Source: a virus. From it: a DNA stretch of 64,000 bases. The stretch lies in IMG/VR virus record IMGVR_UViG_3300031753_000002, positions 22,785 to 86,784 of that record; one strand, 5' to 3'. Position 1 is the first letter of the stretch, and the number at the start of each line of letters is the position of its first letter. Under the pieces are notes generated by a model, which saw nothing but the letters and a program-made list of their open reading frames with translations, did not search any database and was not told the origin of the DNA. A program made the translations under genes and the position numbers. Positions 4,981-27,242 of this stretch are shown piece after piece.

Positions 4981-5232
4981 TCAAGACCGTCGAGAGAACT
5001 GGCGCAGTCGGGTGCCGGCCCCGGTGTAAAGCTTGAGCATCTCTTGGACCGCCGCGGTGTCGATTCGAAGGCGGGTTACCGCCTCGCCGACCGTCTCGCC
5101 GGATAGCAGGCAAACGGAGGCGAGCGCCCCGGCGGCCATGGAAAGGGCATGTTCGCGGTTCCAGGGCTGGCATGTCGCGGCCCGCCGCAGGAAGGCGAGC
5201 GTTTGCTGTTCGGAGGTTTTTTGCGTCCTCAT
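4981..5232 (-). CDS. hypothetical protein
   Basis: MRTQKTSEQQ... start chosen because the longer ORF runs through non-coding repeats. Confidence 0.4.
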   Translation of the reverse strand: MRTQKTSEQQTLAFLRRAATCQPWNREHALSMAAGALASVCLLSGETVGEAVTRLRIDTAAVQEMLKLYTGAGTRLRQFSRRS

Positions 5233-5374
5233 AGGATGAAATCCTCGCGAAGCTTTTTGGCTAGACCGATATTCGCTCCGCCAGGTCTTTGTTGACTTGG
5301 GCATCGGTCCCTGGTCAGCGCGAGCGATGAGTGAGATCAACATTTTGGTGGACTTGGACCCTTCGGTGACTATG

Positions 5375-5502
5375 GCATCTAGCCGATTTTTTAGCAGATC
5401 ACCGGGCAAATTCATGAATGATTTCAGAGTGCATCTAGCCGATTTTTTAGGTGGTGTCAACGGCGTGATCGCAGGTCACCGGGCAAATTCATGAATGATT
5501 TC
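5375..5502. repeat. interleaved direct repeats
   Basis: GCATCTAGCCGATTTTTTAG at 5375 and 5431; TCACCGGGCAAATTCATGAATGATTTC at 5399 and 5476. Confidence 0.85.
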
Positions 5503-12283: not shown

Positions 12284-12301
12284 GGTGATTCGGGCTAGGA
12301 A
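12262..12301 (+). promoter_or_regulatory. putative late promoter, TAAAARSCCGGTTG class
   Basis: TAAAAACCCGG-TTGCCG-17-TAGGAA; the motif recurs at 15501, 15863, 28967, 36176 and 61957. Confidence 0.65.
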
Positions 12302-12337
12302 AGCCATGGTCCCCCTCCCCAATTTCGGGAGTATGCC

Positions 12338-12571
12338 ATGGCTACCCTTACAACGAAGGCTCGCAACAAGCTTCCCGCGTCCAAGTTTGCGCTGTCCGGC
12401 GAGCGCTATCCGGTCGAAGACAAGGCGCACGCTCGCGCCGCGCTCTCGCGTGTGAGCCACGCGGCCAAGGTCGGCAATGTGACGCCCGCCGAAGCCGCGA
12501 AGGTTCGCCACAAAGCGGAGCATGTTCTCGGCGAGACAGATTCCACTTACCATAATACTCCCGGAAGATGA
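12338..12571 (+). CDS. DUF6582-like protein
   Basis: RNKLPASKFAL...RYPVEDKAHARAALSRV matches my recollection of the family motif. Confidence 0.7.
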   Translation: MATLTTKARNKLPASKFALSGERYPVEDKAHARAALSRVSHAAKVGNVTPAEAAKVRHKAEHVLGETDSTYHNTPGR

Positions 12572-12641
12572 CAGCGAAGATATCGGTTGCGCTTCCGTGA
12601 GCGCGGTGTTAGTGTCTACGGGCAAGGCGAAAGGAACGCCA

Positions 12642-12971
12642 ATGTTCAAGACAAACCGCCGCATCGCGGCACTGGAAAAGTGGAGAAGATTCATGGATGC
12701 TCAAGTGCAAGCCCTGACCGACAACGAGAAGGCTCTCGCCGACAATGTGGCTAAGCTGATCGCCGATGTCGGCGATTTGCAAAAGCAACTCGCCGCTGGT
12801 ATCGACGCGGGCGATGAAGCCGCAATCGCGGCCGTCAATGTCGGCTTGACCGATTTGGTGACTCGCACCGCCGCCGCTCTGGCGACCGGTGCCTCTGGCG
12901 CCTCCGGTGCCTCTGGCGCCTCCGGTGCCTCCGGTGCCTCTGGCGCCTCCGGTGCCTCTGGCGCCAGCTAA
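12642..12971 (+). CDS. coiled-coil protein with a C-terminal (GAS)9 tail
   Basis: AAGGA SD; 81-nt GAS codon repeat at 12888-12968. Confidence 0.75.
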   Translation: MFKTNRRIAALEKWRRFMDAQVQALTDNEKALADNVAKLIADVGDLQKQLAAGIDAGDEAAIAAVNVGLTDLVTRTAAALATGASGASGASGASGASGASGASGASGAS

Positions 12972-12981
12972 GGCGAGAACG

Positions 12982-13203
12982 ATGGCAAAGGACGCCAAGG
13001 GTCACGGTAGCGAATCGCGGCGCGATGCAGTCGCAGCGGGCCGTGCCTTGGCGTCCCATCAACTCAAAATTCAGCATCTCGACACGTCGCTGCTTGGCAA
13101 TCCATGGCGCACGGTCGGGGCGAAGACGAACCGAGCCACTGCCGAGCGCATTGCGCAGCATATGCGCACGGACAACGCTGATACTCTTGTGAGGGTACGA
13201 TAA
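12982..13203 (+). CDS. KDAKGHGS-leader protein 1
   Basis: MAKDAKGHGSESRR...; TAATG coupling to the next gene. Confidence 0.8.
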   Translation: MAKDAKGHGSESRRDAVAAGRALASHQLKIQHLDTSLLGNPWRTVGAKTNRATAERIAQHMRTDNADTLVRVR

Positions 13204-13550
13204 TGGCCAAGGATGCAAAAGGACACGGCTCCGAAAGCCGCGGCATCGCCTCGATTACCGGCGCATCGACAACGATGCTCGACGGTCAGCTTCACGGCTC
13301 CGTCAGTTGGAAGGATCACGGCGGCCGAACCGGCACGACCTCCGGACTCATGGACAACGCGCACATGCAAGCGCTTATGGCGCGAGCCGGTCGCGAAGGC
13401 ATCACCGATCGGAACGCAGCCGGCGCGCTTGCGCAAGGTCACCCCAAATCAGCGCCCGTGGCAGTGCATCCGGCTATCAAAGCGGATAACGATGCGGCAA
13501 TTTCCAGATTGAGGCCTGCCTACGGAGCCGGCGTCGGATATCGAAAGTAA
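13203..13550 (+). CDS. KDAKGHGS-leader protein 2
   Basis: MAKDAKGHGSESRG...; also carries the ALAQGHPK module. Confidence 0.8.
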   Translation: MAKDAKGHGSESRGIASITGASTTMLDGQLHGSVSWKDHGGRTGTTSGLMDNAHMQALMARAGREGITDRNAAGALAQGHPKSAPVAVHPAIKADNDAAISRLRPAYGAGVGYRK

Positions 13551-13590
13551 ACTGGCATCACGGCCATACCGAGGCATCTAGGAGTGTGAA

Positions 13591-13881
13591 ATGGCCAAGG
13601 ACAGGTTCGGACATGGAAGCGACGGACGCGGCGGAAGCCGCGGGAGCTTTGGGCAGGGCAATGCACGGTACGGCGGCTATCAGGGGCCGGGCACGCAACG
13701 GCTCATGGATTTGCTTCACGGCACGCACGCCGAGCGCTACGGCGCGGGCCTTAGCCGGGCCTCGGGTGATTCCGATTTCTCTCGCAAGGGCGGGAATCTC
13801 TATCTAGGGCCTACCCCGCCCCCGGCGCATGTCAGCACGCGAGAGCAATTCGCCTCGGCATTGAAGGGAATACGGTCATGA
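13591..13881 (+). CDS. KDAKGHGS-leader protein 3 (variant KDRFGHGS)
   Basis: AGGAG SD; MAKDRFGHGSDGRG... Confidence 0.8.
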   Translation: MAKDRFGHGSDGRGGSRGSFGQGNARYGGYQGPGTQRLMDLLHGTHAERYGAGLSRASGDSDFSRKGGNLYLGPTPPPAHVSTREQFASALKGIRS

Positions 13882-14154
13882 AAGACGCAAAGGGTCACGG
13901 CAGCGCTTCAGCGGCCGGGTCCGGTACCACCGAATTCCATGGATGCCATCCGCGCGCATGTCGGCGCTGGCGGAGTTGTCAGTGTCTTGACGCAAACCCG
14001 ATCGACCGTGATGGAGAAGAAACATTTTGACAAGTGGGACAAGGCAGGCACGCCGCTCTTGAAGCCCGAGGGCGAGGGCTATCGAATGCACACTGAAGGG
14101 GAGCGTGGCGTCTATTTGCTGCCCGATCAGTTGCGTTACGGAGTTCGGCAATGA
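13878..14154 (+). pseudogene. KDAKGHGS-leader protein 4, with the leader and cargo in different frames
   Basis: ATG 13878 gives MKDAKGHGS; the cargo ORF 13939..14154 (MDAIRAH...) is in the +1 frame and its stop couples to 14151. Confidence 0.65.
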
Positions 14155-14591
14155 AGGACGCGAAAGGACATGGTAGCGATGCACACGGGGCCGGGGTTGC
14201 GCAAGTCGGGCAACCGATTCCGGTAGCTGCGAAGGTGGCGGGCGTTATCCAACGTAACCCGAACGGTTTCTCTGTGACGCCAAGCGGGCAAGTGCCAACC
14301 AACGGCTTCATGGTTTCTGTGCCGGGCCGGACGCGCTTCTTGAACCCAGGCGAGGTCACGCCTCAACACGTGGCGGAGTTCGCCAATCAGCACGCCGACC
14401 TCTTTCGGGACAACCCGAATATGCACGTCGGCATGTGGCACGATCCGGCGACCGAAAGGGTCCATCTTGACCCATCCGAGAATTTCAAGAGTCGATCATC
14501 GGCCGAAACCGCCGGAAAGTCGCGTAACCAGATTGCGATTTGGGACGTGCAGAACCGGCGGTCGATTCCGACCGGAGGTACAGGCGGCTAG
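14151..14591 (+). CDS. KDAKGHGS-leader protein 5 with a globular cargo domain
   Basis: MKDAKGHGSDAHG...; cargo GFSV...GFMVS...GMWHD...HLD.S...NQIAIWD. Confidence 0.85.
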   Translation: MKDAKGHGSDAHGAGVAQVGQPIPVAAKVAGVIQRNPNGFSVTPSGQVPTNGFMVSVPGRTRFLNPGEVTPQHVAEFANQHADLFRDNPNMHVGMWHDPATERVHLDPSENFKSRSSAETAGKSRNQIAIWDVQNRRSIPTGGTGG

Positions 14592-14629
14592 CAGAAAGTC
14601 TTGCGCACGTGAAAGTTAGGAAGGTTCCG

Positions 14630-14791
14630 ATGAATGGATGCTATCAAGACGGCGGAGAGCCGACCACAAAGTCGGCCGCCGCGGCGCTCGCTCAGGGTCA
14701 TCCGAAGGCGACGCCCGTGCCTGTCAAGTGGGGCATGAAGGATCAACAGGACCCGAGTATAGTCAAGCCCAAGGGGAAACGTGAGGGCTAG
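14630..14791 (+). CDS. small protein made of ALAQGHPK and PVKWGMKDQ modules
   Basis: AGGAAGG SD; motifs shared with 13203 and 15937. Confidence 0.65.
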   Translation: MNGCYQDGGEPTTKSAAAALAQGHPKATPVPVKWGMKDQQDPSIVKPKGKREG

Positions 14792-14792
14792 C

Positions 14793-15041
14793 ATGTTATC
14801 TTTTGTCGGATATGGTCTCACGACTGCCGACATTCTGTATCATCGGCCGGATCATCTGTGGCTTCTCCAAAGGTACCTCTGGCAAGCATTCGATCAAGCC
14901 CCGAGTTTCCCTCGCTTGCATCGATTCCTGGATTTCTGGCAGAGCAATCTCGACGGTCCGCTGCATTCGGTCACGATCACGCATGCGACGTTGGTTATGC
15001 CAGCGGAGTTGCGATATGCGAGTAATCATTTTCTGATGTGA
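14793..15041 (+). CDS. usg: Usg-family protein
   Basis: GYGLTTADILYHRPDH.WLLQ.Y.WQ..D.AP.FP.L..FLDFWQ..LDGPLHSV is the alphaproteobacterial Usg signature. Confidence 0.85.
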   Translation: MLSFVGYGLTTADILYHRPDHLWLLQRYLWQAFDQAPSFPRLHRFLDFWQSNLDGPLHSVTITHATLVMPAELRYASNHFLM

Positions 15042-15048
15042 GGGGCAC

Positions 15049-15273
15049 ATGCCTGTCGTCAGTCGAGCCCAAGCTGGCTTTGTCGCCATGAGTAAGACCG
15101 CTCAGGGCCGCGCCAAGTTGCGCGCTCATGGCAAGCGGCCAATGCCGGTCAAGGTCGCGACCGAGTTTCAGACGGCAAGCCGAGGCTTGTCGGTCAAGAG
15201 CTTGCCTATGCGCAAGAAGCGGCCGGCGCACGAAGCCGGCATACACACTGCAACGCGGAGGTCCCGCCTATGA
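15049..15273 (+). CDS. small basic protein (MPxxSxAQ type)
   Basis: GAGGGG SD; MPVVSRAQ N-terminus seen in phage late small proteins. Confidence 0.7.
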   Translation: MPVVSRAQAGFVAMSKTAQGRAKLRAHGKRPMPVKVATEFQTASRGLSVKSLPMRKKRPAHEAGIHTATRRSRL

Positions 15274-15491
15274 CGACAAAGATCAAGATCGAGAATGATG
15301 GTACCAGCAACGGCGACGTTGTGGTGCGTGCTTTCAATTCGTGCGAGGGTACGATCGCATTCGAGTTGCTCCCGGGCGAAGCTCGGGAGTTGTGGATCAC
15401 AGACAATACCGGACTGTTCGTGACGGAGACGTGGCCGACCAAGAAGCCGAATCCCGATAGTCCGGCGCCAGCCGAGCCCGGCGAGGATTGA
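15270..15491 (+). CDS. hypothetical protein
   Basis: GGAGG SD; ATGA coupling. Confidence 0.7.
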   Translation: MTTKIKIENDGTSNGDVVVRAFNSCEGTIAFELLPGEARELWITDNTGLFVTETWPTKKPNPDSPAPAEPGED

Positions 15492-15528
15492 TCCGACCGC
15501 TAAAAGCCCGGTTGCATATAGAGCCGCG

Positions 15529-15858
15529 ATGGTGAATCAGCGTAAAGTTCGTGCTCGCTCTGTTCGATATCGGGCTGCACATCCGCAACGCGTGCGCGAT
15601 TCGGATAGATCACGCCGCGCTCGAAAAATGGGCTATGAACCGCCACCTTCTGAAAAGGATTGTTCGGCACGACCACGTGATGGTCGATGCGATTGTTGTT
15701 TACGGCCGACAATACGATTTCATTTAGATCACGACCATGTAACCGGCGCGTTTCGCGGCTGGGTTTGTGGTCCGTGCAATCAATCAGCTTTTCCTGATGA
15801 TCCGGTGCGATTGCGAGAACGCGCCGATTTTCTGGATCGTAAATTACCTTGGCAGTGA
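15529..15858 (+). CDS. endonuclease VII-type HNH protein
   Basis: CDCC...HLDHDHVTGAFRGWVCGPCN. Confidence 0.85.
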   Translation: MVNQRKVRARSVRYRAAHPQRVRDSDRSRRARKMGYEPPPSEKDCSARPRDGRCDCCLRPTIRFHLDHDHVTGAFRGWVCGPCNQSAFPDDPVRLRERADFLDRKLPWQ

Positions 15859-15936
15859 CGGCTAAAAACCCGGTTGCGCATAGCTTGGCTCCCAGCTAAG
15901 TTATCGCGACGGTTTTTCTTTATTTTGGAGGTCACC

Positions 15937-16446
15937 ATGGCTGTATCTGGCAGTGGCACGGCAGTCCGTGCAAATAACCCCGACCCGCCGATGGTGGATC
16001 AGACCAAGTATGACGCACGTTCCGGTGCTCCGAAGCGTCCGCAGACCACGTACCCGGTCAAGTGGGGCATGAAGGATCAGACAACCATGTCCGGCCTCGG
16101 CGTAGGTATTGGCGGGCCAGCCGGCGCGCCGGATGCAAGCTCGCCGAATCCGCTCGACCCGGAGCCCCGCGTCAAGAATTTGCGACGCCAGCCGGTCAAA
16201 CTCGAAGCCAAGTGGGGAATGCGCGGAGCGTCGCAGACGGACGGCATGAGTGATAGTCATGTCACCGGCAAGACTCTCGAAACCACGATGCCAGATGGCA
16301 GCAAGCTCGGTGCGGAGGCGATGGCAGGCAAGGTTCTCGGTGAGGCAATTCTCTCGGGATCGAGCAAGCTCCCGGCTTCGCAGAGCGCGAAGACCGACAG
16401 TGGTACCGCCCCGAAGCCTTGGCCGGCGCAAGATCGCGGCGGGTAA
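15937..16446 (+). CDS. low-complexity protein with two KWGM motifs
   Basis: GGAGG SD; promoter motif at 15863. Confidence 0.75.
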   Translation: MAVSGSGTAVRANNPDPPMVDQTKYDARSGAPKRPQTTYPVKWGMKDQTTMSGLGVGIGGPAGAPDASSPNPLDPEPRVKNLRRQPVKLEAKWGMRGASQTDGMSDSHVTGKTLETTMPDGSKLGAEAMAGKVLGEAILSGSSKLPASQSAKTDSGTAPKPWPAQDRGG

Positions 16447-16449
16447 CGT

Positions 16450-16752
16450 ATGCGCGCCGTCCGCAGTACGCGGCCGGGCTACGCGGACCCGAGCAATCCT
16501 TGGGCGATCGCCAAGCAGCCGGCATCTCAAGGCGCTGAGGCGGTCAGTGTCATCGGGCACGGGCATGTTGCGCCTGAATTCGCCGCGGCCGTCATGCATA
16601 ACGATTTGTCGGATGACGAACGCAATTTGATGCAGGGCTACAAACCTACGCCGTTGCCTTGGTCTCAAGTGCCGACCGAAGGGTCAGATACAAATGAGAC
16701 CGAGGGAGACGGGAGTGTAAGAGACCCTACAGGACAGGGATTCGGGACATGA
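16450..16752 (+). CDS. hypothetical protein
   Basis: Tightly packed in the operon. Confidence 0.6.
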   Translation: MRAVRSTRPGYADPSNPWAIAKQPASQGAEAVSVIGHGHVAPEFAAAVMHNDLSDDERNLMQGYKPTPLPWSQVPTEGSDTNETEGDGSVRDPTGQGFGT

Positions 16753-16892
16753 GCCTCATTATTTTGATTATCGTGCTTTTGCTGCTTTTCGGCGGCGCCG
16801 GGCATTATTATGGCGGCCCGGCTTGGGGCGGGGGCGGCATCGGGCTTGTGCTCCTGATTTTGCTTATCCTGTTTTTGTTCGGTCGAATCTAG
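16749..16892 (+). CDS. DUF3309-like small membrane protein (47 aa)
   Basis: MSLIILIIVLLLLFGG...YGG..WGGGGIGLVLLILLILFLFGRI. Confidence 0.8.
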   Translation: MSLIILIIVLLLLFGGAGHYYGGPAWGGGGIGLVLLILLILFLFGRI

Positions 16893-16901
16893 GAGGACGC
16901 C

Positions 16902-17054
16902 ATGGCGCCTATCGCAGCCGTCAAGTTCATTGGTTCGTGGGGATGCATCGTCGGCGCCGTCGTGCTCATGGTGCTCGGGCATGAGACGTTCGGGCTGCCC
17001 GGCGTGCTTGCGCTTCTCTCGATAGCATTTTCTCAAGCCCCGGTGACGTGGTGA
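16902..17054 (+). CDS. small membrane protein
   Basis: AGGAGG SD; two hydrophobic segments. Confidence 0.6.
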   Translation: MAPIAAVKFIGSWGCIVGAVVLMVLGHETFGLPGVLALLSIAFSQAPVTW

Positions 17055-17248
17055 AAGACGCAAAGGGACATGGCAGCGATCCGCGTAATGCCGGCGGATC
17101 GAAAGCGTCGCATGAGCGCGCGGCACCTTCGGTTCGTCCAGCGATTCAGATGATGGCTAAGCACGGGGACCTCTTTGACCCAGCGACGATATCTGAGGCA
17201 CCCACTACGCACCTAGCCGCGCACATCGCGCACTTTATGGGACTGTGA
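17051..17248 (+). CDS. KDAKGHGS-leader protein 6
   Basis: GTG start overlapping the previous TGA; (M)KDAKGHGSDPR... Confidence 0.75.
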   Translation: MKDAKGHGSDPRNAGGSKASHERAAPSVRPAIQMMAKHGDLFDPATISEAPTTHLAAHIAHFMGL

Positions 17249-17254
17249 ACGGCT

Positions 17255-17719
17255 ATGATCCGCGGAAAACGACAATATGGAGCACGGCAGCAATATGGCA
17301 TTCCCTTTGGAGGATTGAATTCTACGCGCCCGGCACAGAGCCCCGAAAGTGATTTGCAAAATTTAGGCGGCACGGCGCCGGGGGGATTAGTTGGGTTTCC
17401 TGGTGGAAATTCACAATGGAACACACCAAACGCCGCAGTGCATGCCGATGCAAATTTGCCGCCCGGCGCAACAGTCAATCCGTTGCACAAGGCGTTGGCG
17501 TATAGCCATGCGACGGCTGCGGATGGCGCACCGGATGTGGCGCGCAACGTACCAATTCACCCCGGCCTTCGGCCGGGCCTGTTCCGCACGGCGAGCGATG
17601 CCAATCCGCGCGCCCCGGACGGGCAGATAACAACGCAGGGGCCGATCGCTCCGAATGGTAGGTACCGCGGCGACTCGCCTGAGATACCGAAGCAGCCGAA
17701 AGGCACGTACGTCCGATGA
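17255..17719 (+). CDS. Pro/Gly-rich hypothetical protein
   Basis: 154-aa ORF in the late small-gene cluster. Confidence 0.6.
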   Translation: MIRGKRQYGARQQYGIPFGGLNSTRPAQSPESDLQNLGGTAPGGLVGFPGGNSQWNTPNAAVHADANLPPGATVNPLHKALAYSHATAADGAPDVARNVPIHPGLRPGLFRTASDANPRAPDGQITTQGPIAPNGRYRGDSPEIPKQPKGTYVR

Positions 17720-17772
17720 TAATGCTCTATGTGGCATATGTCGCGACGATACAGGCAATGTGGGAGATTGTG

Positions 17773-18108
17773 ATGGCACAAGAAATCGTTGGTTCTCGGA
17801 TGCCGACGTTGGCGTCCGATGCGCTTCACCCGTCCGATCGCGGCTATGGACAGAACGGCTTTGCCGGGCCGTCGAGTGATGAACCGGGACAGAACAGCAA
17901 GAGCGGTTTCCTGCCCGGTGTCGATCTAGCCGCGGCTGTGGCCGATAATGGGCTGCGATCGGCTCCGCAAGAGCTTTCGCGTTCGGGAATGGAGCGTCCG
18001 CGGGGTGAGAAGGGCGGCCACATTCAAGGGCCGCAGACGCGCCACGTCAGCGATGCCGGTTATCCGCCGTCGTTTGGGATGACCTCGCGGTCGCCTCGCG
18101 ACCGATAA
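17773..18108 (+). CDS. Gly/Ser-rich hypothetical protein
   Basis: GGGAG SD. Confidence 0.6.
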   Translation: MAQEIVGSRMPTLASDALHPSDRGYGQNGFAGPSSDEPGQNSKSGFLPGVDLAAAVADNGLRSAPQELSRSGMERPRGEKGGHIQGPQTRHVSDAGYPPSFGMTSRSPRDR

Positions 18109-18304
18109 GACGCGTCTTATCTTTGCCGCTAACCCTGATAAGGGAAACGTTATCATGCGAAAAGCTCCGCCCCGCCCGGCAACCCCTCAACCTCAAACCC
18201 AAGCGGGTCAAGCTGCGGGCGCGGGCAAGCTAAACCTCGCGAACGCGAGCGCGGCCGGGACAACGGCCGGCTACGCGCTATCGTGAGAGGATGAGAGGCG
18301 TTAG

Positions 18305-18607
18305 ATGAGCAAAAATAAATCGGCATTGCAAACGGCTTCATCTCCGACTCGTATGACTTTAGCTAACGCCTCAGCGGCGTCAACTACCGCTGGGGCACCG
18401 ACTCCATTAAGTATGGGACCACAAGGCGGCCCCGCACTTAGTGTCGGACCGCAGACAAGCCCGAGCCCAAAAGGTTCGAATCAACCACTGCCCGCTTCAG
18501 CGCCACGGCCGCCCGTCGCGCCGCATGGCGGCACCAAGTCTCTCGGGACGCACCAATCCGCCTCGCCGAACAAGAAGGGCAATCCGGTACACGGTATGTC
18601 AAAATAA
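18305..18607 (+). CDS. Pro/Ser-rich hypothetical protein
   Basis: GAGG SD. Confidence 0.55.
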   Translation: MSKNKSALQTASSPTRMTLANASAASTTAGAPTPLSMGPQGGPALSVGPQTSPSPKGSNQPLPASAPRPPVAPHGGTKSLGTHQSASPNKKGNPVHGMSK

Positions 18608-18663
18608 GGCGCGCATGGGCGCGCACGTCGGCATGGGCCGGCGCAGAAGATTAGGAGGCTGAC

Positions 18664-19398
18664 ATGGGTCAGAACCGGCAAGCCAAATATAGACCCGGCT
18701 TTGATAAAAGTTCGCATGGGCACGTTCGATCTTCGCAGGCTATCATCGGAGTTGACGCCCGCGGTCGGCCAGTAATTCAGAAGCGTCCCGGCGCCCCCAC
18801 CAAGTACACCCCCGAACTATGTCAACGTATTCTAACCGCTATTGAGCGATGGGCAAACGTGACGCATGCGTGCGCCATGAACGGCATCATATATCCGACG
18901 TTTCGGCATTGGCTCCTAAAAAGTAGGAACGGTCGGGTCGGCGACGGATTCGATGTAGAGTTCGATGGCCGCGTTGATAGGCTCCACGTTCATTATGACG
19001 ATTGCCTGGACGCGTCAGTGCAGCGAATCGAAGAAAATCTCATGGATCGTGCAATCGGCTGGAAAGAGGTCCTGACGGATAAGGGCCGTGTGCAATACCA
19101 GTTCGATGAAGACTTGCTTAGTCTCGGGTTCACGGGATACGAGGCGTATCTCCGCGATGAAAACGGCAAACCTATTCCCGAGACTGTGGACAAGCAGGAC
19201 CCCGAGGTCATGCTCATGGTTTTGAAACATTTCCGTCCTGAGCGCTGGACGACGAAGATCGATATGGATGTGACGCACAAGGGCGGCGTCCTTGTAGTCG
19301 GTGTGAAGGCAACATCCGAAGAACTGACTGACCTCGCCAAGAAGGCGCGTGACAACCCGGTTGAGATCGAGTTTCGTGAAGACGGGGAGGACGTGTGA
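18664..19398 (+). CDS. terS: terminase small subunit
   Basis: PGAPTKYTPELCQRIL HTH, IEENLMDRAIG motif; immediately upstream of TerL. Confidence 0.8.
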   Translation: MGQNRQAKYRPGFDKSSHGHVRSSQAIIGVDARGRPVIQKRPGAPTKYTPELCQRILTAIERWANVTHACAMNGIIYPTFRHWLLKSRNGRVGDGFDVEFDGRVDRLHVHYDDCLDASVQRIEENLMDRAIGWKEVLTDKGRVQYQFDEDLLSLGFTGYEAYLRDENGKPIPETVDKQDPEVMLMVLKHFRPERWTTKIDMDVTHKGGVLVVGVKATSEELTDLAKKARDNPVEIEFREDGEDV

Positions 19399-20945
19399 TG
19401 CACACCATCCACGCCTTTCGCAAAGTCGGGAATGAATACATCCCGCTGGTCTATGACGATCATGGCAAGGAAATCGAAGCTGTGTGGGCGCCGCAGCCCG
19501 GTTCGCAAGAGCTATTTCTCAAGGCGTCTGAAATCGAGGTTCTGTACGAAGGAACACGCGGTCCCGGCAAGACCGACGCTCTGATTATGGATTTTTGTCA
19601 GGACGTGGGCAAGGGCTGGGGCGCGGAATGGAAGGGCGTGCTGTTTCGGCAAACGCATCCACAGTTGAGAGACGTGATCGAGAAATCAAAAAAGTGGATC
19701 AAACGTATCTGGCCCGGCGCTTTCTACAACGAGATCAAATTCTTCTGGGAGTGGGAATCGGGCGAACGCTTGTATTTTTCACATTTCAACGTTCCGTCGC
19801 AGTATTCCGACTATCACGGCCATGCGTACCCGTGGATCGGCTGGGAGGAATTGACAACGTGGCCGAACCCAGACTGCTTCAAAGTCATGTTCGCATGCTC
19901 GCGCTCGACGATAGCAAAGATGCCGAGAAAAGTCCGGGCGACAACGAATCCCTACGGAGTCGGGCATAATTGGGTAAAGTCACGCTACCGACTGCCTGTG
20001 CCGCCGGGCGATATCGTTGGGCCGGTCATTGCTGATAGCATTGACGATCAAGGAAACCCGGAGCCGCCGCGCCGCGCAGTTCACGGCTACCTCGACGAAA
20101 ATAAAATTCTTGCGCATACGGACCCCGGCTACAAAAGTCGGATTCGGGCTGCGGCTCGAAACGAGAGCGAGCTTCGGGCGTGGCTCGACGGATCGTGGGA
20201 TATCGTCGCAGGCGGCATGTTCGACGATATTTGGTATGAATACAGGCACGCAATCGTGGTGCAGCCTTTCGAGGTTCCGCCGGGATGGAAGATCACGCGG
20301 GCGTACGATCACGGGTCTTCGAAGCCGTTTAGCGTCGGCTGGTATGCTGAGAGCGACGGCACTGATTTGGCATTCCCGGATGGTACTGTGCGCGCCACAC
20401 TCCGCGGCGATATCTTTCGGATCAAAGAGTGGTACGGCTGGCGCGGGCAACCGAACGAAGGCTCACGCATGTTGGTCCCCGATATCGCCAAGGGTATCGT
20501 CGAGCGGGAAATCAAGTGGGAATGGCGGGCGCCTGATGGTTCATCCAATCGTGTCAAGCGTGGCCCCGCCGACAGTTCGATCTTCGACGATTCGAACGGC
20601 ATCAGCATCGCCGAAGATTTCGAGAAGCCGATCATGTTCAACGGCGTGAAGCACAAGGGCATCGTGTGGGAGAAAGCCGACAAGGGACACGGGTCGCGCG
20701 AACAAGGATGGGAGCAAATCCGAAAGAGGCTCAAGGCCACGAAGCGTCCGCCGGGCGGCTATCGCGAGGTTCCTGGCCTATTCATTACGAAGGATTGCGT
20801 CCATTGGCTTCGCACGGTTCCTACTCTGCCGCGTGATGAAAAGAAGATCGATGATGTTAATGATGAAGCCGAGGATCACACTGGCGACGAAACCCGATAT
20901 CGATTGCGTTTTGAAAGTCGCACCGTGACAAGTAGGAGGGCATAA
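19395..20945 (+). CDS. terL: terminase large subunit
   Basis: Walker A YEGTRGPGKT, Walker B WEELT, ATTNPYGVGHNW, nuclease motifs AYDHG and EDHTGDETRY. Confidence 0.95.
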   Translation: MMHTIHAFRKVGNEYIPLVYDDHGKEIEAVWAPQPGSQELFLKASEIEVLYEGTRGPGKTDALIMDFCQDVGKGWGAEWKGVLFRQTHPQLRDVIEKSKKWIKRIWPGAFYNEIKFFWEWESGERLYFSHFNVPSQYSDYHGHAYPWIGWEELTTWPNPDCFKVMFACSRSTIAKMPRKVRATTNPYGVGHNWVKSRYRLPVPPGDIVGPVIADSIDDQGNPEPPRRAVHGYLDENKILAHTDPGYKSRIRAAARNESELRAWLDGSWDIVAGGMFDDIWYEYRHAIVVQPFEVPPGWKITRAYDHGSSKPFSVGWYAESDGTDLAFPDGTVRATLRGDIFRIKEWYGWRGQPNEGSRMLVPDIAKGIVEREIKWEWRAPDGSSNRVKRGPADSSIFDDSNGISIAEDFEKPIMFNGVKHKGIVWEKADKGHGSREQGWEQIRKRLKATKRPPGGYREVPGLFITKDCVHWLRTVPTLPRDEKKIDDVNDEAEDHTGDETRYRLRFESRTVTSRRA

Positions 20946-21100
20946 TGGCTGCGTTGTTAGGTTCTGTAGCTCTTACGGGCGCGGAAAAGAGTGCTCGATA
21001 TGATGTTAAGCATCGTATCGAACGCGCCGAAGACGGCACCGCCGAAGAACATGAAGCGATTGCCGCATGGATGAAAGGGTACTCTCATGGCTCTCGATGA
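20945..21100 (+). pseudogene. probable internally deleted HNH endonuclease remnant
   Basis: LTGAEKSARY... joined directly to EDGTAEEHEAIAAWM (HNH C-terminal-like); no catalytic core. Confidence 0.45.
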
Positions 21101-22730
21101 TCGTCATCCTGAATATGTGCAAAGACTCGGAGAGTGGATACAATGCCGAGATTGCTACGCTGGGGAGCGAGCAATCAAGCGTAAGCGCTTAGATTATCTT
21201 CCTCCAAGTGAGGCGATGGTGCAAGACGGAATGACTACACCAACATCCCCAGGCTGGAAAGACTATGAAGCATATCTGACCAGAGCTTACTTTCATGACG
21301 TTATGCGAGATGCTGTGAAAGCAATGGTTGGAATTATGCATATGAAACCCGCCGTCATCAAACTGCCGCCGAAGCTTGCCCCAATGGTGGACAAGGCTAC
21401 GATCCAAGGCGAGGGCCTGCAAATGCTCATGCGCCGAATCAATGAGGCGCAGCTTGTGTTCGGCCGCTGCGGCTTGCTTGTTGATGCGCCAACCGGAGTG
21501 GACCCCTACAAGGCGCTTCCCTACATCGCGTTTTACGAACCCGAGCGCATCATCAATTGGGATGCCGGCCGACGCGACGAAGGCCGCAATTTGCTTGAAC
21601 TTGTCGTGCTCGACGAAAGTGGGTTTCAGCGCGAGGGCTTCACATGGGTCAACGAGCGCAAACATCGCGTCCTGACGCGCGGCATTCCTGGTTCTCTCGA
21701 AAGTGGATGGACCCGCCCAGAACCTACCGACAAGTTCGCATTGTGCGTCAAAGTCAACGATATGTCGATGCCGATTCCCGACGATTTCATCGTGCCATCG
21801 ATAGGCGGCCGGCCGATGGATGAAATCCCATTCGTCTTCATCGGCGCGACCGATCTTGTGCCTGAGCCGGACCTGCCGCCCTTGCTTGGACTCAGCAATC
21901 TCGCGCTTGCGATCTACCGCGGCGAAGCCGATTATCGGCAGACGCTTTTCATGCAAGGACAGAGCACTCTCGTTATCATCGGCGGCGCCGCCGACGATGA
22001 CGACAAGCAGCTTCGCGTCGGCGCGAAGGGCCTCATTTCCCTCCGCATCGGGGGCGACGCCAAATACATCGGCGTCCCTGCCGCTGGCCTCGGTGAAATG
22101 CGGACCTCGCTCAAGACTGATCAAGAGAACGCAGCTATGATGGGCGTTGCATTCATGGACGTGGGCAACGCTCGTGGCGAGTCAGGCGAGGCGCTGCGTA
22201 TCCGCGTCGCTGCACGCACGACAACGATTTCCGCCATCGCTCAAGCGGCTGGCGCCGGTTTGGAGCAAGTTCTCAAGCTGTGCGCCATATGGGTCGGCGA
22301 AGACCCGGACACCGTGAGCGTGACGCCGCAGACCGATTTCGCGGACCAGAACGTCGCGGGTGCGAGCCTGTTGGCCTTCATGCAAGCGAAGCAACTCGGC
22401 TTGCCGCTCAGTCTCAAGAGCTTGCATCGCATGATGCATCTCAACGACATGACTGAGATGGATTTCGACACCGAGAACCAACAGATCGAAGAAGAAGCCG
22501 AGAGCTTGATCGGCACAATGGTTCACGGCGCCGCGTTCGGCGTGACCGACGAAACCTTCCTCGATACCCAACAGGGAAGCGGAGCGGACCCGGTAGACCC
22601 CGAAGATGCTGCCGCGACCATTCCGCCTATCCCGCCGAATCAAAACGTTCCGATCAAGCCGCACACACGCGGCTCGCCCGTTCCGCTCAAACGCAAGGTA
22701 GGCAAGAAGGGCGCGTCCAATGGTAAATGA
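21087..22730 (+). CDS. portal protein (DUF4055-type)
   Basis: HPEY...YL.RA.F, GRCGLLVD, IINW, IPFVFIG, PPLLGL, ESGEAL motifs; position after TerL. Confidence 0.92.
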   Translation: MALDDRHPEYVQRLGEWIQCRDCYAGERAIKRKRLDYLPPSEAMVQDGMTTPTSPGWKDYEAYLTRAYFHDVMRDAVKAMVGIMHMKPAVIKLPPKLAPMVDKATIQGEGLQMLMRRINEAQLVFGRCGLLVDAPTGVDPYKALPYIAFYEPERIINWDAGRRDEGRNLLELVVLDESGFQREGFTWVNERKHRVLTRGIPGSLESGWTRPEPTDKFALCVKVNDMSMPIPDDFIVPSIGGRPMDEIPFVFIGATDLVPEPDLPPLLGLSNLALAIYRGEADYRQTLFMQGQSTLVIIGGAADDDDKQLRVGAKGLISLRIGGDAKYIGVPAAGLGEMRTSLKTDQENAAMMGVAFMDVGNARGESGEALRIRVAARTTTISAIAQAAGAGLEQVLKLCAIWVGEDPDTVSVTPQTDFADQNVAGASLLAFMQAKQLGLPLSLKSLHRMMHLNDMTEMDFDTENQQIEEEAESLIGTMVHGAAFGVTDETFLDTQQGSGADPVDPEDAAATIPPIPPNQNVPIKPHTRGSPVPLKRKVGKKGASNGK

Positions 22731-22962
22731 GCGAGCGCGTCGGGTCTCGGTTTGGAATGCAGTCATCGCCATCATTGACCAAACCGAGCTTGAAATGCGC
22801 GATATCATAGAGCGAGAGTTCGTCAACACCGCGGGCCTGGACGGGCTTCGGCTCGGCGAGGCCATGACGGCAGCGAACCGCGCCATGAAGCAAATCACGC
22901 CGTTGCGCGTTCGGGCAATCAAGCGCGCGTTCCGATTGATCCGTGACAAGGGCATGGCATGA
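22720..22962 (+). CDS. small helical protein, possible N-terminal fragment of a MuF-like head protein
   Basis: Sits at the MuF position after the portal; amphipathic helices. Confidence 0.5.
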   Translation: MVNERARRVSVWNAVIAIIDQTELEMRDIIEREFVNTAGLDGLRLGEAMTAANRAMKQITPLRVRAIKRAFRLIRDKGMA

Positions 22963-23843
22963 CCTTCGACCCGAACGAAGCACGTGACTATCACGGCCGC
23001 TGGACGGCTGGGAGCGGGAGCGTGGCGGAAGCACAGGCGCAGGCCATGAAGATTGCCGGCGGGCGCCAGCCGCTCGCCGGACTGCTGCAGAAGCCTATCA
23101 AGCTCGGCGACGAATGGTATGTGCCCGGCCCGAACGCGCGTATCGCCGACGCGGCTGAAGCGTACATGAAGGCCGCGGGCCTGCCGTATGATCCGCCAAA
23201 GACTTACCAGAAGGTTGACTCCGAGCGCGCCACGAAGATCGCGCAAGCCTTTGAAGACATGAAGCATGATCCGAACGACCCGGCCGTCAAGGCATCTTAT
23301 GAAGCGATGGCGCGTGAAACCCTCGCCCAATGGCAGGCGCTCAAGGCGACTGGCCTTCAAGTCGAGTGGATCAAGCCCGGCCAGCCGGACCCCTATGCAG
23401 ACAGTCCACGTCGCGCCGCGATGGATATGAGTCTGCATAATCATTGGTGGGGCTTTCCGACCGACATGGGCTTTGGCACTGGACCCGAAGCCGAGAAGGC
23501 CATGAAGGATAACCCGTTACTCGCGCCGACCAATGAGGTTGTAGGTGGGCGCCACTTGGTCGTCAACGATGTGTTCCGAATCGTGCATGACCAGTTCGGG
23601 CATTTCAAAGAGGGCAATGGCTTCCGGGCGGACGGCGAGGAAAACGCGTGGCGCTCGCACGTGGCGATGTATTCGCCGCTTGCCCGCGGCGCGATGACCT
23701 CCGAAACTCGGGGGCAAAATTCGTGGGTAAATTTTGGGCCGTATGGGGCGGCGAACAAGCACGCGAGCGCGGCCGATACTCACTACGCCGATCAAAAGGT
23801 CGGTCTCATGCCGGAATGGACCCGGACTGAGGGTGCGAAATGA
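22959..23843 (+). CDS. RDxHGRWT-leader protein with an HDxxGH...E metal-binding domain
   Basis: N-terminus FDPNEARDYHGRWT; NDVFRIVHDQFGH...GEENAW...ETRGQNSW. Confidence 0.8.
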   Translation: MTFDPNEARDYHGRWTAGSGSVAEAQAQAMKIAGGRQPLAGLLQKPIKLGDEWYVPGPNARIADAAEAYMKAAGLPYDPPKTYQKVDSERATKIAQAFEDMKHDPNDPAVKASYEAMARETLAQWQALKATGLQVEWIKPGQPDPYADSPRRAAMDMSLHNHWWGFPTDMGFGTGPEAEKAMKDNPLLAPTNEVVGGRHLVVNDVFRIVHDQFGHFKEGNGFRADGEENAWRSHVAMYSPLARGAMTSETRGQNSWVNFGPYGAANKHASAADTHYADQKVGLMPEWTRTEGAK

Positions 23844-24757
23844 ATGATGTGACAACCGAACCGCGTGACGAACACGGTCGCTGGACCTCTGGCAGCGGGA
23901 GTACCAAGCCGAGCGACAAGCTTTGGGCGACGCTTCACGGCGATCCTAATGGGCCGTTCGTGAGTCTCGCAGACCCGGAGAGTAACGCCGCGCATGCGAG
24001 AGCCATTTCTGACATTGCCGGGAGTGTCGCCAAAGAGCTTGGGTTCAATCCATCTAAGATCAACATCACGGATGGCGAGCATAAGTTCACAGTCAACGGG
24101 AAAGACATGACGGCGGCGGGCCTCGCGCATCGGGAAACAGGATTGATAACGCTCTACACGAAGCAGCTTACCGAGTCCTTCACTCCTGGCGCCACGGCGC
24201 ACGAAATCATGCATCAAAAATGGAACGCATACCTCGAAGATTATCGAGCGGAGGCGGCCAAAGTCATGACGGACCCGGATGGTGCAAACTCACCGTACCG
24301 CGGGCCAGATGCCTTCATGAAGGCTGACGGAACCCTTGGCGAAAAGTACGCCGCTCGGTATCCGATCTATCAAGAATACACGAAGCTCATGATGAATTCG
24401 GAGAAGATGCGCGCCGAGGATGGGGTATCCGATTACAGCCGGGAATATTGGAATGCCGTCAACAGCGGCGAAGCTAACCGTGTCAAGGGCACGTACATCA
24501 ACTCGCAAGGCAATGTGCAAGAATACACGACAAGCCGCATCACTCTCGACCAGTGCTACCATGAGACGCTCGCAGAGATGGCGAGGCTCGACTATGAGAA
24601 TAAGAAGGCCAAGGAAAAGGGCAGCGCGATCTTCAATCCAGTTGCCCCGCCGGCCCGGCTGAAAAGCGGCAAGGCTTCGACGGCTCGGAGGTCGAAGGAT
24701 TGGGAGGCTTTGTACGAAGCGATCAACCGCAACTGGGATAAGCGGAGCAAAGCATGA
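23840..24757 (+). CDS. RDxHGRWT-leader zincin-like metallopeptidase
   Basis: N-terminus EPRDEHGRWT; AHEIMH, VSDYS and ETLAE motifs. Confidence 0.8.
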   Translation: MNDVTTEPRDEHGRWTSGSGSTKPSDKLWATLHGDPNGPFVSLADPESNAAHARAISDIAGSVAKELGFNPSKINITDGEHKFTVNGKDMTAAGLAHRETGLITLYTKQLTESFTPGATAHEIMHQKWNAYLEDYRAEAAKVMTDPDGANSPYRGPDAFMKADGTLGEKYAARYPIYQEYTKLMMNSEKMRAEDGVSDYSREYWNAVNSGEANRVKGTYINSQGNVQEYTTSRITLDQCYHETLAEMARLDYENKKAKEKGSAIFNPVAPPARLKSGKASTARRSKDWEALYEAINRNWDKRSKA

Positions 24758-25950: not shown

Positions 25951-26808
25951 ATGCCTAAGCTCAAGACCATCTATGAGAAAGAGGAAGACGTTCCCGAAGG
26001 TTTCGGCGAGTTGTACGTCGAGCGCAACGGGAAATGGGAGTTGACCGGAGTCGAAGGCGTGAAGACGCAGGCTGATATCGACCGGGTGAATGAAGCCCTC
26101 CGCAAGGAAAAGGCCGACCACAAAGCGCTCAAGGAAAAACACGTCAAAGTAGCTGATCTTGACCCCGAAAAGGTCGCTGAACAGGCTGCCGAACTTGAAG
26201 CTGCGCAAGCACAGCTTGCCGCATTCACGAAGGATGGCAATCTTGACGAAACGAAACTTGAGCCGATCATTGAGGCGCGAATCAAGCGCGCCCTCGGGCC
26301 GATCGAGCGCGACAAGGCCGCGCTTGAACGCAAGCTCGCCGATGAAGCCAAGGCTAAGGAACTGGCACTCGGCGAGGTCGTGTCCCTGAAAACTAGCATC
26401 ACGCAGCGCACGATCGAGAACGCGCTTCGCGATGCCGCAACCGCCGGCAAGGTCCTGATCACCGCGGTTGACGATGCCGTATCCATCGGTTCCCGGTATT
26501 TCGAGACAACCGAAGACGGCCGCGTGTTGACTCGTGACAACATGGGAATCACGCCGGGCTTGAAACCGACCGAGTGGCTCAAGGACATGCAAGAGCACAA
26601 GCCGCATTGGTGGCCTGCTTCTCAGGGCGGTGGTTCGCGCGGCGGTTCTGGCGGCACTGGCGGCCGGGCCGACAATCCGTGGATGCCTGAGAATTGGAAC
26701 GTCACCAAGCAGGGCGCCTATATCCAGCAACACGGCATTGAGAAAGCCGCGCAAGCGGCTGCGACCGCTGGCAGTAAGGTTGGCGCCACTAAGCCGAAAG
26801 CTGCGTAA
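25951..26808 (+). CDS. capsid scaffolding protein
   Basis: Coiled coil, PHWWPASQGGGS, C-terminal NPW...WNVTKQG; upstream of the major capsid gene. Confidence 0.88.
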   Translation: MPKLKTIYEKEEDVPEGFGELYVERNGKWELTGVEGVKTQADIDRVNEALRKEKADHKALKEKHVKVADLDPEKVAEQAAELEAAQAQLAAFTKDGNLDETKLEPIIEARIKRALGPIERDKAALERKLADEAKAKELALGEVVSLKTSITQRTIENALRDAATAGKVLITAVDDAVSIGSRYFETTEDGRVLTRDNMGITPGLKPTEWLKDMQEHKPHWWPASQGGGSRGGSGGTGGRADNPWMPENWNVTKQGAYIQQHGIEKAAQAAATAGSKVGATKPKAA

Positions 26809-26869
26809 ACCGCCTAAGGACCTTCGCGTGCCCTTAAAAGTACGCGAAGGTTGTCATTCAGGGATGTAA

Positions 26870-27235
26870 GTGATGATTAACCCGTGGGCGGCCGATACTT
26901 GGAATCTCACCAAACAAGGCAGCATTGTCAGCAATTTCGGTTTTGCTGCGGCTGAGAAAATGGCGAGAGAGGCGGGCACGACAGTCGGCGGCTTGAAGCC
27001 TAAGATCGCGCCCGCAAAGCTCACGGTTCTAATTCAGCGGAGATTTTTGGGCGCAAGTGGGGGCAGCGGGACCGGAGCGACTGGCGCAACGGGCGCAACG
27101 GGCGCCACGGGGGCAAGTACAAATTGGCTTGAGGGACACGGGGTTCCTAGTGATTCGATCGGAAATAATGGTGATTTGTATCTTGACCTCGACACGGGAA
27201 ACGTCTACCAGAAGGCAGGTGGAACGTGGTTCTGA
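26870..27235 (+). CDS. scaffold C-terminal domain copy fused to GAT repeats and a GDxYLD module
   Basis: NPWAADTWNLTKQG...AG..VG..KPK matches the scaffold tail; C-terminus matches 32091..32369. Confidence 0.8.
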   Translation: MMINPWAADTWNLTKQGSIVSNFGFAAAEKMAREAGTTVGGLKPKIAPAKLTVLIQRRFLGASGGSGTGATGATGATGATGASTNWLEGHGVPSDSIGNNGDLYLDLDTGNVYQKAGGTWF

Positions 27236-27242
27236 GGTCCTC

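Follow-up and report, generated by a model that had tools for sequence, protein, structure and literature searches.

A Recurrent N-Terminal Peptide on Unrelated Small Proteins Encoded beside Phage Packaging Genes: a Candidate Tag for Proteins of the Phage Head

Introduction

The internal proteins of T-even phages are diverse defense proteins whose sole common feature is a capsid targeting sequence (CTS), which in T4 directs proteins into the scaffolding core, and the proteins are injected, according to the available text of PMC3012670. Here we describe a comparable set of genes in 64,000 nucleotides of viral DNA (hereafter the window), which comprise bases 22,785–86,784 of the 86,784-bp IMG/VR virus record IMGVR_UViG_3300031753_000002, a record that has direct terminal repeats and is rated complete. 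Six small genes in the window encode proteins that open with the same peptide, M(A)KDAKGHGS or a close variant of it, which we refer to as the tag. As with the T4 proteins that carry the CTS (IPI, IPII, IPIII, and Alt), a short N-terminal peptide is the only feature common to small basic proteins, and the gene set varies among relatives. The two peptides presumably do not resemble each other in sequence. They also differ in that the T4 peptide is cut off by a T4-type head protease, whereas the genome of the window contains no PF04586, PF14550, or PF00574 and, at E ≤ 1, no PF03420 (T4-type Peptidase_S77). In addition, the KDAKGHGS-type tag occurs internally, as a joint between modules.

Iyer et al. 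2017 (PMC5512222) describe injected phage effectors that are broadly like the enzymes on a few tagged proteins, ADP-ribosyltransferases among them. Polyvalent proteins and MuF-linked effectors, as presented in the text of that article and of Jamet et al. 2017 (PMC5576092), may have in common with a few of the tagged proteins ART-PolyVal, ParB_N, and acetyltransferase domains linked to head genes, and the giant proteins P0001, P0002, P0005, P0006, and P0036, in which the tag forms the joints, resemble them. The peptide is not mentioned in the available text of either article, though the supplementary alignments may hold it within a named domain. The proteins of the window differ from polyvalent proteins in being single small modules in separate genes; an architecture of two to fifteen effector domains is found instead in distant tag-bearing giants such as P0001, P0002, and P0005.

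Two further systems use short terminal peptides on proteins of a shell. Encapsulin cargo-loading peptides are short terminal peptides that, through a flexible Gly-rich linker, bring unrelated cargo into an HK97-fold shell; they usually sit at the C-terminus and dock in a defined pocket of a single shell family, whereas the tag described here is N-terminal and common to phages of different capsid families. In Staphylococcus phage 80alpha, the scaffold and capsid proteins share an N-terminal leader that is cut by the host protease of ribosomal protein L27. The likeness lies in a short N-terminal peptide on head proteins, which in 80alpha is defined by a protease outside the head module; the difference is that L27 of the candidate hosts scores about 0 bits against the tag and that no host protein carries the motif in 300 genomes of one candidate order. 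Substrates of XkdF (Peptidase_S78_2) are also pertinent, with the difference that the window genome does not encode the corresponding family. We propose tentatively, and at slightly less than an even chance, that the peptide is a tag for head-internal, probably ejected, proteins and that it works as a free N-terminus.

Results and Discussion

Six genes with a common N-terminal peptide

The tagged genes of the window are the following.

12982–13203, + strand: tagged gene 1; 73 residues, opening with MAKDAKGHGS; body family T3 (seven members in other loci)
13203–13550, + strand: tagged gene 2; 115 residues, opening with MAKDAKGHGS; body in the large T0 cluster; holds the ALAQGHPKSAPV motif
13591–13881, + strand: tagged gene 3; 96 residues, opening with the variant MAKDRFGHGS; Gly 21%, isoelectric point (pI) 10.3; singleton body
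13878–14154, + strand: tagged gene 4; open reading frame (ORF) of 50 residues opening with MKDAKGHGS (13878–14030), with a probable +1-frame continuation
14151–14591, + strand: tagged gene 5; 146 residues, MKDAKGHGS and then AHGAGV; family T2 (20 members)
17051–17248, + strand: tagged gene 6; 65 residues, opening with the M(A)KDAKGHGS peptide; GTG start overlapping the stop of an upstream 50-residue membrane ORF; singleton body

All six ORFs named in a preliminary description of this DNA as sharing a leader are thus present at the starts given there. The tag follows the start codon immediately or with one Ala in between, and only the ORF at 13591 departs from KDAKGHGS. The back-translated form of KD..GHGS, AARGAYNNNNNNGGNCAYGGNWS, matches the window six times, always on the + strand, and gives no match in each of 100 dinucleotide-preserving shuffles of the window. 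The whole 86,784-bp genome contains exactly these six matches and none to a reversed control pattern. Four of the six tagged starts overlap the preceding stop (TAATG at 13203, ATGA at 13878 and at 14151, GTGA at 17051), which agrees with the translational coupling suggested in the preliminary description, and the array does lie, as stated there, upstream of the terminase small subunit gene (terS). The putative late promoter that it also placed here was not recovered: a sigma-70-type scan gave five sites against 3.2 expected, none of them on the + strand between 10733 and 18716.

Conservation acts on the peptide. Among the five KDAKGHGS copies of the window, two to three codons are used per residue, Ser being encoded by both AGC and TCC, and the mean pairwise nucleotide identity over the 24 bases of the tag is 74% for all six copies. 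The same is seen in 201 unique tagged genes from other loci, in which Gly is encoded by GGA (103), GGC (51), GGT (39), and GGG (8) and Ser by all six of its codons. The use of two or three codons for each invariant residue indicates selection on the peptide rather than on the DNA, as had been suggested from the window alone. For the 201 unique tagged proteins that are complete, the consensus reads M(A)KDA[KL]GHGS[NDE]x[RHK]GG, and an RGG-like stretch comes after the tag.

Tagged gene 4 is probably frameshifted, through either a real shift or an assembly error. In the 0 frame the ORF ends at 14030 and carries four Cys in its tail, in a family that is otherwise free of Cys; the +1 frame, open from 13879, runs to 14154 and closes with the ATGA at the gene 5 start. 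The stretch 13632–14241 is not covered by public contigs, and no relative of the +1-frame body was found among the related loci.

Bodies of the tagged proteins

Once the leader is removed, the six bodies of the window show no significant similarity to one another; in a database of seven sequences, the best match has E = 0.02 and 18.5 bits across 21 residues. Single-linkage clustering of 197 leader-less bodies at E < 1e-4 yields 61 clusters, of sizes 76, 21, 20, 7, and then smaller, with 44 singletons, and the six window proteins fall into six different clusters. These results uphold the earlier statement that the bodies are unrelated rather than simple paralogues. The tandem arrangement of the genes and the clusters of 76, 21, and 20 are what would be expected if the proteins were ordinary paralogues, or if their shared start were a DNA-level recombination handle for cassette exchange. 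The first of these alternatives is opposed by the number of clusters and singletons and by the lack of detectable similarity among the six, such that plain paralogy is close to excluded by the sequences. The second is opposed by the codon variation at all invariant residues, since 24 bases at the identity given above are too short and too divergent for homologous recombination. Taken together, we regard this pair of explanations as very improbable.

The tagged proteins are uniform in character. The 201 unique proteins are 11–205 residues long (median 123), with a pI above 8 in 93% (median 9.9), and contain 13.2% Gly, 4.3% His, and 0.0% Cys; the database representatives of the tag (described below) have a median pI of 9.5 and 0.08% Cys. 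This composition, together with the RGG-like stretch, might suggest that the tag acts by its intrinsic chemistry, as a flexible, basic, His/Gly-rich arm that touches packaged DNA or metal, and that the proteins are DNA-condensing head fillers. There is precedent in the T4 internal proteins, which, according to the available text of PMC3012670, contact DNA phosphates via lysines. Six invariant residues are not needed for charge alone, however, and the same tag is carried by enzyme cargos and by protease-scaffold proteins. We therefore consider this explanation improbable, although less so than paralogy or a recombination handle.

Domains were found on few of the tagged proteins. Among 141 of them, from the other loci and the window, Pfam identifies ART-PolyVal in two, GNAT acetyltransferase in two, Arr-ms (Arr-like) in one, and ParB_N in one, and the PHROGs matches are nearly all to families of unknown function. 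The six window proteins, of 50–146 residues, have no Pfam domain and no recognizable effector domain, and the combined Pfam and PHROGs searches with them returned nothing except phrog_3170 and phrog_17808 for gene 5. The preliminary description had inferred effector cargo, which thus suits a few proteins of other loci but finds no recognizable counterpart among the six.

A second motif, [AGST]H.xG[VIT] (AHxxGV), occurs in 78 of the 201 tagged proteins against a mean of 2.4 in shuffled bodies, usually 9–19 residues past the tag Lys; in the window it is present in gene 5. Two other short motifs recur in tagged and untagged proteins of the slot that holds the array, at 13437, 14696, 14726, 16060, and 16210. 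ALAQGHPK(S/A).PV is found in gene 2 and in the untagged ORF at 14630, and KWGM(K/R), or KWGM(K/R)D, is found in the 14630 ORF and, in two copies, in the ORF at 15937.

Family T2, to which gene 5 belongs, has a mean column identity of 52% over 18 aligned members. The body of gene 5 matches positions 314–397 of phrog_3170, and the protein of a gene behind the portal (22959) matches positions 187–275. Matches to separate parts of one family suggest that these two bodies are parts of one protein in other phages, a further likeness to polyvalent proteins. A word-index search with residues 1–40 of gene 5 for longer fused forms scored none of five candidates, which is weak evidence. A Protein Data Bank sequence search with the gene 5 family profile and with the protein of gene 23840 returned nothing below E 0.1.

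Distribution of the tag

The exact pattern is found at 71 loci in IMG/VR, some contigs having 10 or more matches, and a six-frame scan for K[DE]..GHG gives 279 matches at 77 loci plus the window; as many of the loci come from one clade, these counts do not represent independent events. The great majority of the 279 matches are N-terminal: in 207 the start codon is immediately followed by the tag, in 58 one residue intervenes (Ala in 44, Pro in six, Ser in four, Gly in three, and Thr in one), and 14 are internal. A profile of 150 leader 32-mers was searched against 1.84 billion cluster representatives (50% identity) and returned 462 at E ≤ 0.001. Among the best 150 of these, 127 are small proteins (29–256 residues, median 120) with the tag at residue 2–3, and 23 have an internal tag, often in two to four copies.

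In cellular genomes, taken as one per species for 185,579 species, the exact pattern occurs at six loci, all in metagenome-assembled genomes (MAGs), which are assigned to Hyphomicrobiales, Alphaproteobacteria, Prevotella, and Bacteriovoracaceae. Host assignment from these loci is therefore weak. When 301 genomes of the order of one tag-bearing MAG were searched with the tag profile, the starting MAG alone matched. A host motif or prophage origin was rejected on this basis, there being no matching host protein in the 300 other genomes.

In one soil-metagenome DNA run, 69% of sampled words of the stretch are present, and no RNA run is listed among the sequencing runs that contain it. A blastn comparison of 12300–18700 with 50,697 phage records yielded one 77-base match only, of low complexity, and tblastn with gene 5 gave weak body matches only, to hypothetical proteins of actinophages. 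A literature search found no publication with KDAKGHGS-type peptide strings or with strings of the RDxHGRW type discussed below; the literature on packaged or injected proteins, judged from titles and the starts of abstracts, contained nothing relevant. The tag is thus a widespread, phage-specific N-terminal peptide that we have not found in print.

The array and the packaging genes

The array in the window stands in a slot bounded by the following genes.

12338–12571, + strand: DUF6582-like gene heading the slot (phrog_16160, E 1.6e-21); homologue in 24 related loci
15937–16446, 16450–16752, 17255–17719, and 17716–18108, + strand: conserved untagged genes between the array and terS, in 30, 13, 13, and 22 related loci, respectively
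18664–19398, + strand: terS (phrog_4044, E 1.6e-7)
19395–20945, + strand: terL
21087–22730, + strand: portal

The same order is constant in the relatives, namely the DUF6582-like gene, the tagged array, the homologues of 15937, 16450, 17255, and 17716, terS, terL, and portal, with each landmark in 22–30 loci. Their terL is 71–80% identical to that of the window and found in 26 loci, and the portal is found in 21. Within this clade the arrays keep a fixed place beside the packaging genes and share their orientation. Complete genomes of the clade contain arrays of 12 (118.7 kb) and of six to seven (126.8 kb) tagged genes.

The order within the arrays is itself partly kept. Family T1 is among the first, T0-type genes stand in mid-array, and T3 often precedes T2. 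Of the 22 sources with a T2 gene, 18 have it as the final tagged gene ahead of the 15937 homologue. This semi-fixed order implies that the arrays consist of a conserved core and variable members. Accordingly, the cargo is not as freely interchangeable as the preliminary description proposed: array content does vary between relatives, but the families T0, T1, T2, and T3 recur in a partly set order.

Internal tags and prohead proteases

A different arrangement is seen where the tag is internal. In one locus, L070, it is found at residue 412 of a 528-residue protein whose Peptidase_S78_2 (XkdF) domain spans residues 160–279. On one side of this gene are a portal (phrog_113), MuF (PF04233), and a 695-residue protein with Acb1 and ADP-ribosyltransferase domains; on the other is a major head protein (phrog_1005). 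The stretch that precedes the tag (..VMFNDVVKA) is repeated at the C-terminus of the same protein. In the 664-residue P0003, three His-rich modules, all headed by the tag, come after an XkdF domain. In the giant proteins P0001, P0005, and P0036, from a 197-kb phage (G001) and its relatives, two to four tags serve as joints, and the smaller proteins of G001 have an N-terminal region of 25–75 residues ahead of the tag. An internal tag mostly has Ala directly ahead of it, and this Ala is usually preceded by K, E, N, or D. No locus related to P0003 or P0002 was found among viral contigs.

As a side observation, the 695-residue protein of L070 (8042–10126, minus strand), which is encoded beside MuF, unites the anti-CBASS domain Acb1 with an ADP-ribosyltransferase exoenzyme domain and also matches RyR weakly. 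We note it as a candidate packaged multi-effector.

The XkdF family PF14550 occurs in two of 50 tag-bearing records, G001 and G002, which are the records with internal tags (the 8% fragment G003 is a relative of G001). Of the nine records that are at least 90% complete, one has PF14550, and it is the one with internal tags. Like the protease families named in the Introduction, PF04233 is absent from the window genome. These data raise the question of whether the peptide is a processing joint, that is, a motif at which an XkdF-type prohead protease or a host protease cuts multi-module head proteins, with the stand-alone genes as former modules. The restriction of internal tags to PF14550 records is consistent with such a role, as are the position of the tag after the protease domain and its repetition between modules in P0003 and L070, the preference for Ala after K/E/N/D ahead of it, and the C-terminal repeat of the pre-tag stretch in L070. 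Six invariant residues in eight would also suit a dedicated protease site. However, the clade of the window has no known head protease (its genome lacks the protease families named above), yet the tag is invariant on more than 200 proteins under selection at the peptide level. A cut ahead of the tag would strip merely Met or Met-Ala from the stand-alone proteins, and the survey of 300 genomes above reveals no host protein with the motif. On this evidence we judge a processing joint to be unlikely, if somewhat more credible than a purely chemical role.

A second peptide behind the portal gene

Two genes downstream of the portal encode larger proteins with a related beginning.

22959–24757, + strand: two post-portal genes with a sister tag, ..RDxHGRWT.GSGS, on different bodies; the 22959 body is of phrog_3170 type

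The two proteins begin with ..EARDYHGRWTAGSGS and ..EPRDEHGRWTSGSGS. The relatives likewise have a post-portal gene with an RDxHGRW start and other bodies. A direct comparison is offered by the homologous giants P0005 and P0036 (34% identity over 495 residues, E 4e-59), where the joint KEKDAKGHGSNK, of KDAKGHGS type, aligns with EQERDEHGRWRK, of RDEHGRW type, and L070 contains a hybrid stretch, HDAKGRFASGSGGGGEGHGSNPKGG. The two peptides, which have the skeleton [KR]-D-x-x-G-[HR] in common, therefore appear to be positional equivalents.

The protein of gene 23840 contains an HEIMH motif and has look-alikes of metallopeptidase type, as leads only (Peptidase_Mx1, TM 0.47/0.57; M90, feature score 0.88). 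As this gene is absent from L071, a close relative, it is not the general partner of the tag.

A possible function of the tag

The reading that we favor is that (A)KDAxGHGS[NDE]x[RKH]G labels the head of modules that belong to proteins inside the phage head. Several observations point in this direction: the fixed slot beside the packaging genes, a cargo that is small, basic, and free of Cys, the presence of effector-type enzymes among the proteins, the tag on prohead protease-scaffold proteins, and its equivalence with the tag next to the portal. The T-even internal proteins provide a matching precedent. The six small, basic, Cys-free proteins of the window would be loaded into the procapsid and would probably exit with the DNA at infection, with the tag acting as a flexible, exposed N-terminus. 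In phages without a recognizable head protease, such as that of the window and its relatives, the tag is written straight after the start codon; in XkdF-type phages it lies within longer proteins, either following a pro-region or at the junction of modules, in most cases with ..K-A ahead of it, and cleavage there would expose it. The KDAxGHGS peptide would then be a sequence variant of the RDxHGRW peptide on the larger post-portal proteins. The interpretation as a packaging tag is partly supported by the sequences, and the peptide probably represents the capsid-cargo tag concept in a new sequence form, unusual in its independence of a protease.

Several findings weigh against this proposal. 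For the association between internal tags and a protease, about two independent lineages can be set against some four. The recurrence of T0–T3 in order makes part of the array a conserved set rather than swappable cargo. No cultured relative was found in the phage-record searches, and tblastn with the 25-residue leader against the same 50,697 records gave two weak matches to membrane proteins (E 4 and 8). The single tagged gene (5130–5423, minus strand) of L012, a complete 55.8-kb phage whose terL is unrelated, adjoins HNH, replication-initiation, and antiterminator genes, on the opposite strand and outside a head module. The linkage to the head module that the preliminary description proposed to test by a pattern search thus holds for the relatives, with their one slot beside packaging and head genes, and fails in L012. 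The tag is also invariant across phages that differ in their capsid, portal, and terminase families (portals of phrog_145 or phrog_113 and capsid proteins of phrog_247 or phrog_1005; terL without a match in G001, G002, or G006), and no phage protein was found to co-occur with it throughout.

Candidate partners were examined individually. The 22959 family was rejected as a universal partner, as it is present in nine of 18 records and in five of the nine complete ones, and so were DUF6582, found in one of five records and below the cut-off, and 23840, whose gene was found in no related locus. Mimicry of the N-terminus of ribosomal protein L27 was likewise rejected, with scores of −2.6 to 0.2 bits for three L27 proteins of MAGs with tag genes.

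An invariant tag across unrelated head proteins is a poor fit to docking on one head protein, with which it would be expected to co-vary. This misfit and the lack of a co-occurring partner lead us to keep three options for the step at which the tag would act: during loading, on the way out through portal and tail, or later, once entry has taken place. The same invariance across phages with unrelated head proteins would be accounted for if the tag were a short linear motif for one conserved cytoplasmic partner, be it a host hub or chaperone, a nucleic acid, or a phage enzyme, with proteins that act in the cell and are not packaged. The place of the L012 gene in a replication and regulation region agrees with this, as do the further short motifs shared by the proteins (AHxxGV, with its excess over expectation, ALAQGHPK, and KWGM(K/R)D). 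Such a motif would not need its strict N-terminal position, however, and the occurrence of the tag inside prohead protease-scaffold proteins, its alignment with the portal-side tag, the fixed and codirectional placement of the arrays by the packaging genes in the window clade, and the result of about 0 bits for L27 all speak against it. We consider a cytoplasmic partner unlikely, while granting it a better chance than the processing joint.

A broader form of the head-internal proposal is that KDAxGHGS and RDxHGRW make up one widespread, protease-independent N-terminal address code of uncultured soil phages, which marks all head-interior or ejected proteins and is presented either at the start codon or after exposure by XkdF. 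We hold this to be doubtful, if still a serious possibility. If it were true, the set of injected proteins could be read from sequence, and the 9–13-residue tag could serve for the loading of foreign proteins into capsids. If the tagged proteins are packaged or ejected, they constitute a large uncharacterized pool of candidate early-acting phage proteins (the 462 representatives and at least 61 body families), which includes ADP-ribosyltransferases and acetyltransferases and in which anti-defense functions would be expected. Cargo would then be tagged without a maturation protease, and one joint peptide would link cargo genes that stand alone, fusions of protease and scaffold, and giant polyvalent proteins. 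It would also provide a very short handle by which proteins could be loaded into capsids. Should the partner instead be in the host or the cytoplasm, the tag would still be a strongly conserved phage-specific motif whose partner is worth finding.

Other features of the locus

The slot and its surroundings hold several additional genes.

15529–15858, + strand: insert in the slot, an endonuclease VII/HNH-like gene with a 19-bp direct repeat on either side
Downstream of the portal: two unknown genes (22959 and 23840), a MuF-like fragment (24754), scaffold (25951), glycosyltransferase (27057), and major head protein (29146)

Upstream of the array lie a primase gene (2303) and many small ORFs, and just ahead of the first tagged gene is an ORF (12522–12971) with a coiled-coil-like body and nine GAS repeats at its end. 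The 19-bp direct repeat AAARCCCGGTTGCRYATAG occurs at 15503–15521 and 15865–15883, these being its only two copies (0.04 expected), and looks like either the footprint left when a mobile nuclease cassette inserted or a promoter that was duplicated. The portal of the window is 46–47% identical to siphovirus portals, for example, those of RDJL3, PhiJL001, and PaMx25. Between the scaffold and major head protein genes is a group-1 glycosyltransferase (27057–28349; PF13692, PF00534; phrog_3408, E 2.7e-115). Finally, the C-terminal stretch of the scaffold, NPWMPENWNVTKQGAYI...KPK, recurs at the N-terminus of the next ORF (26870–27235), where it is followed by GAT(G) repeats (window positions 26600–27235), and this second copy may be a borrowed coat-binding module.

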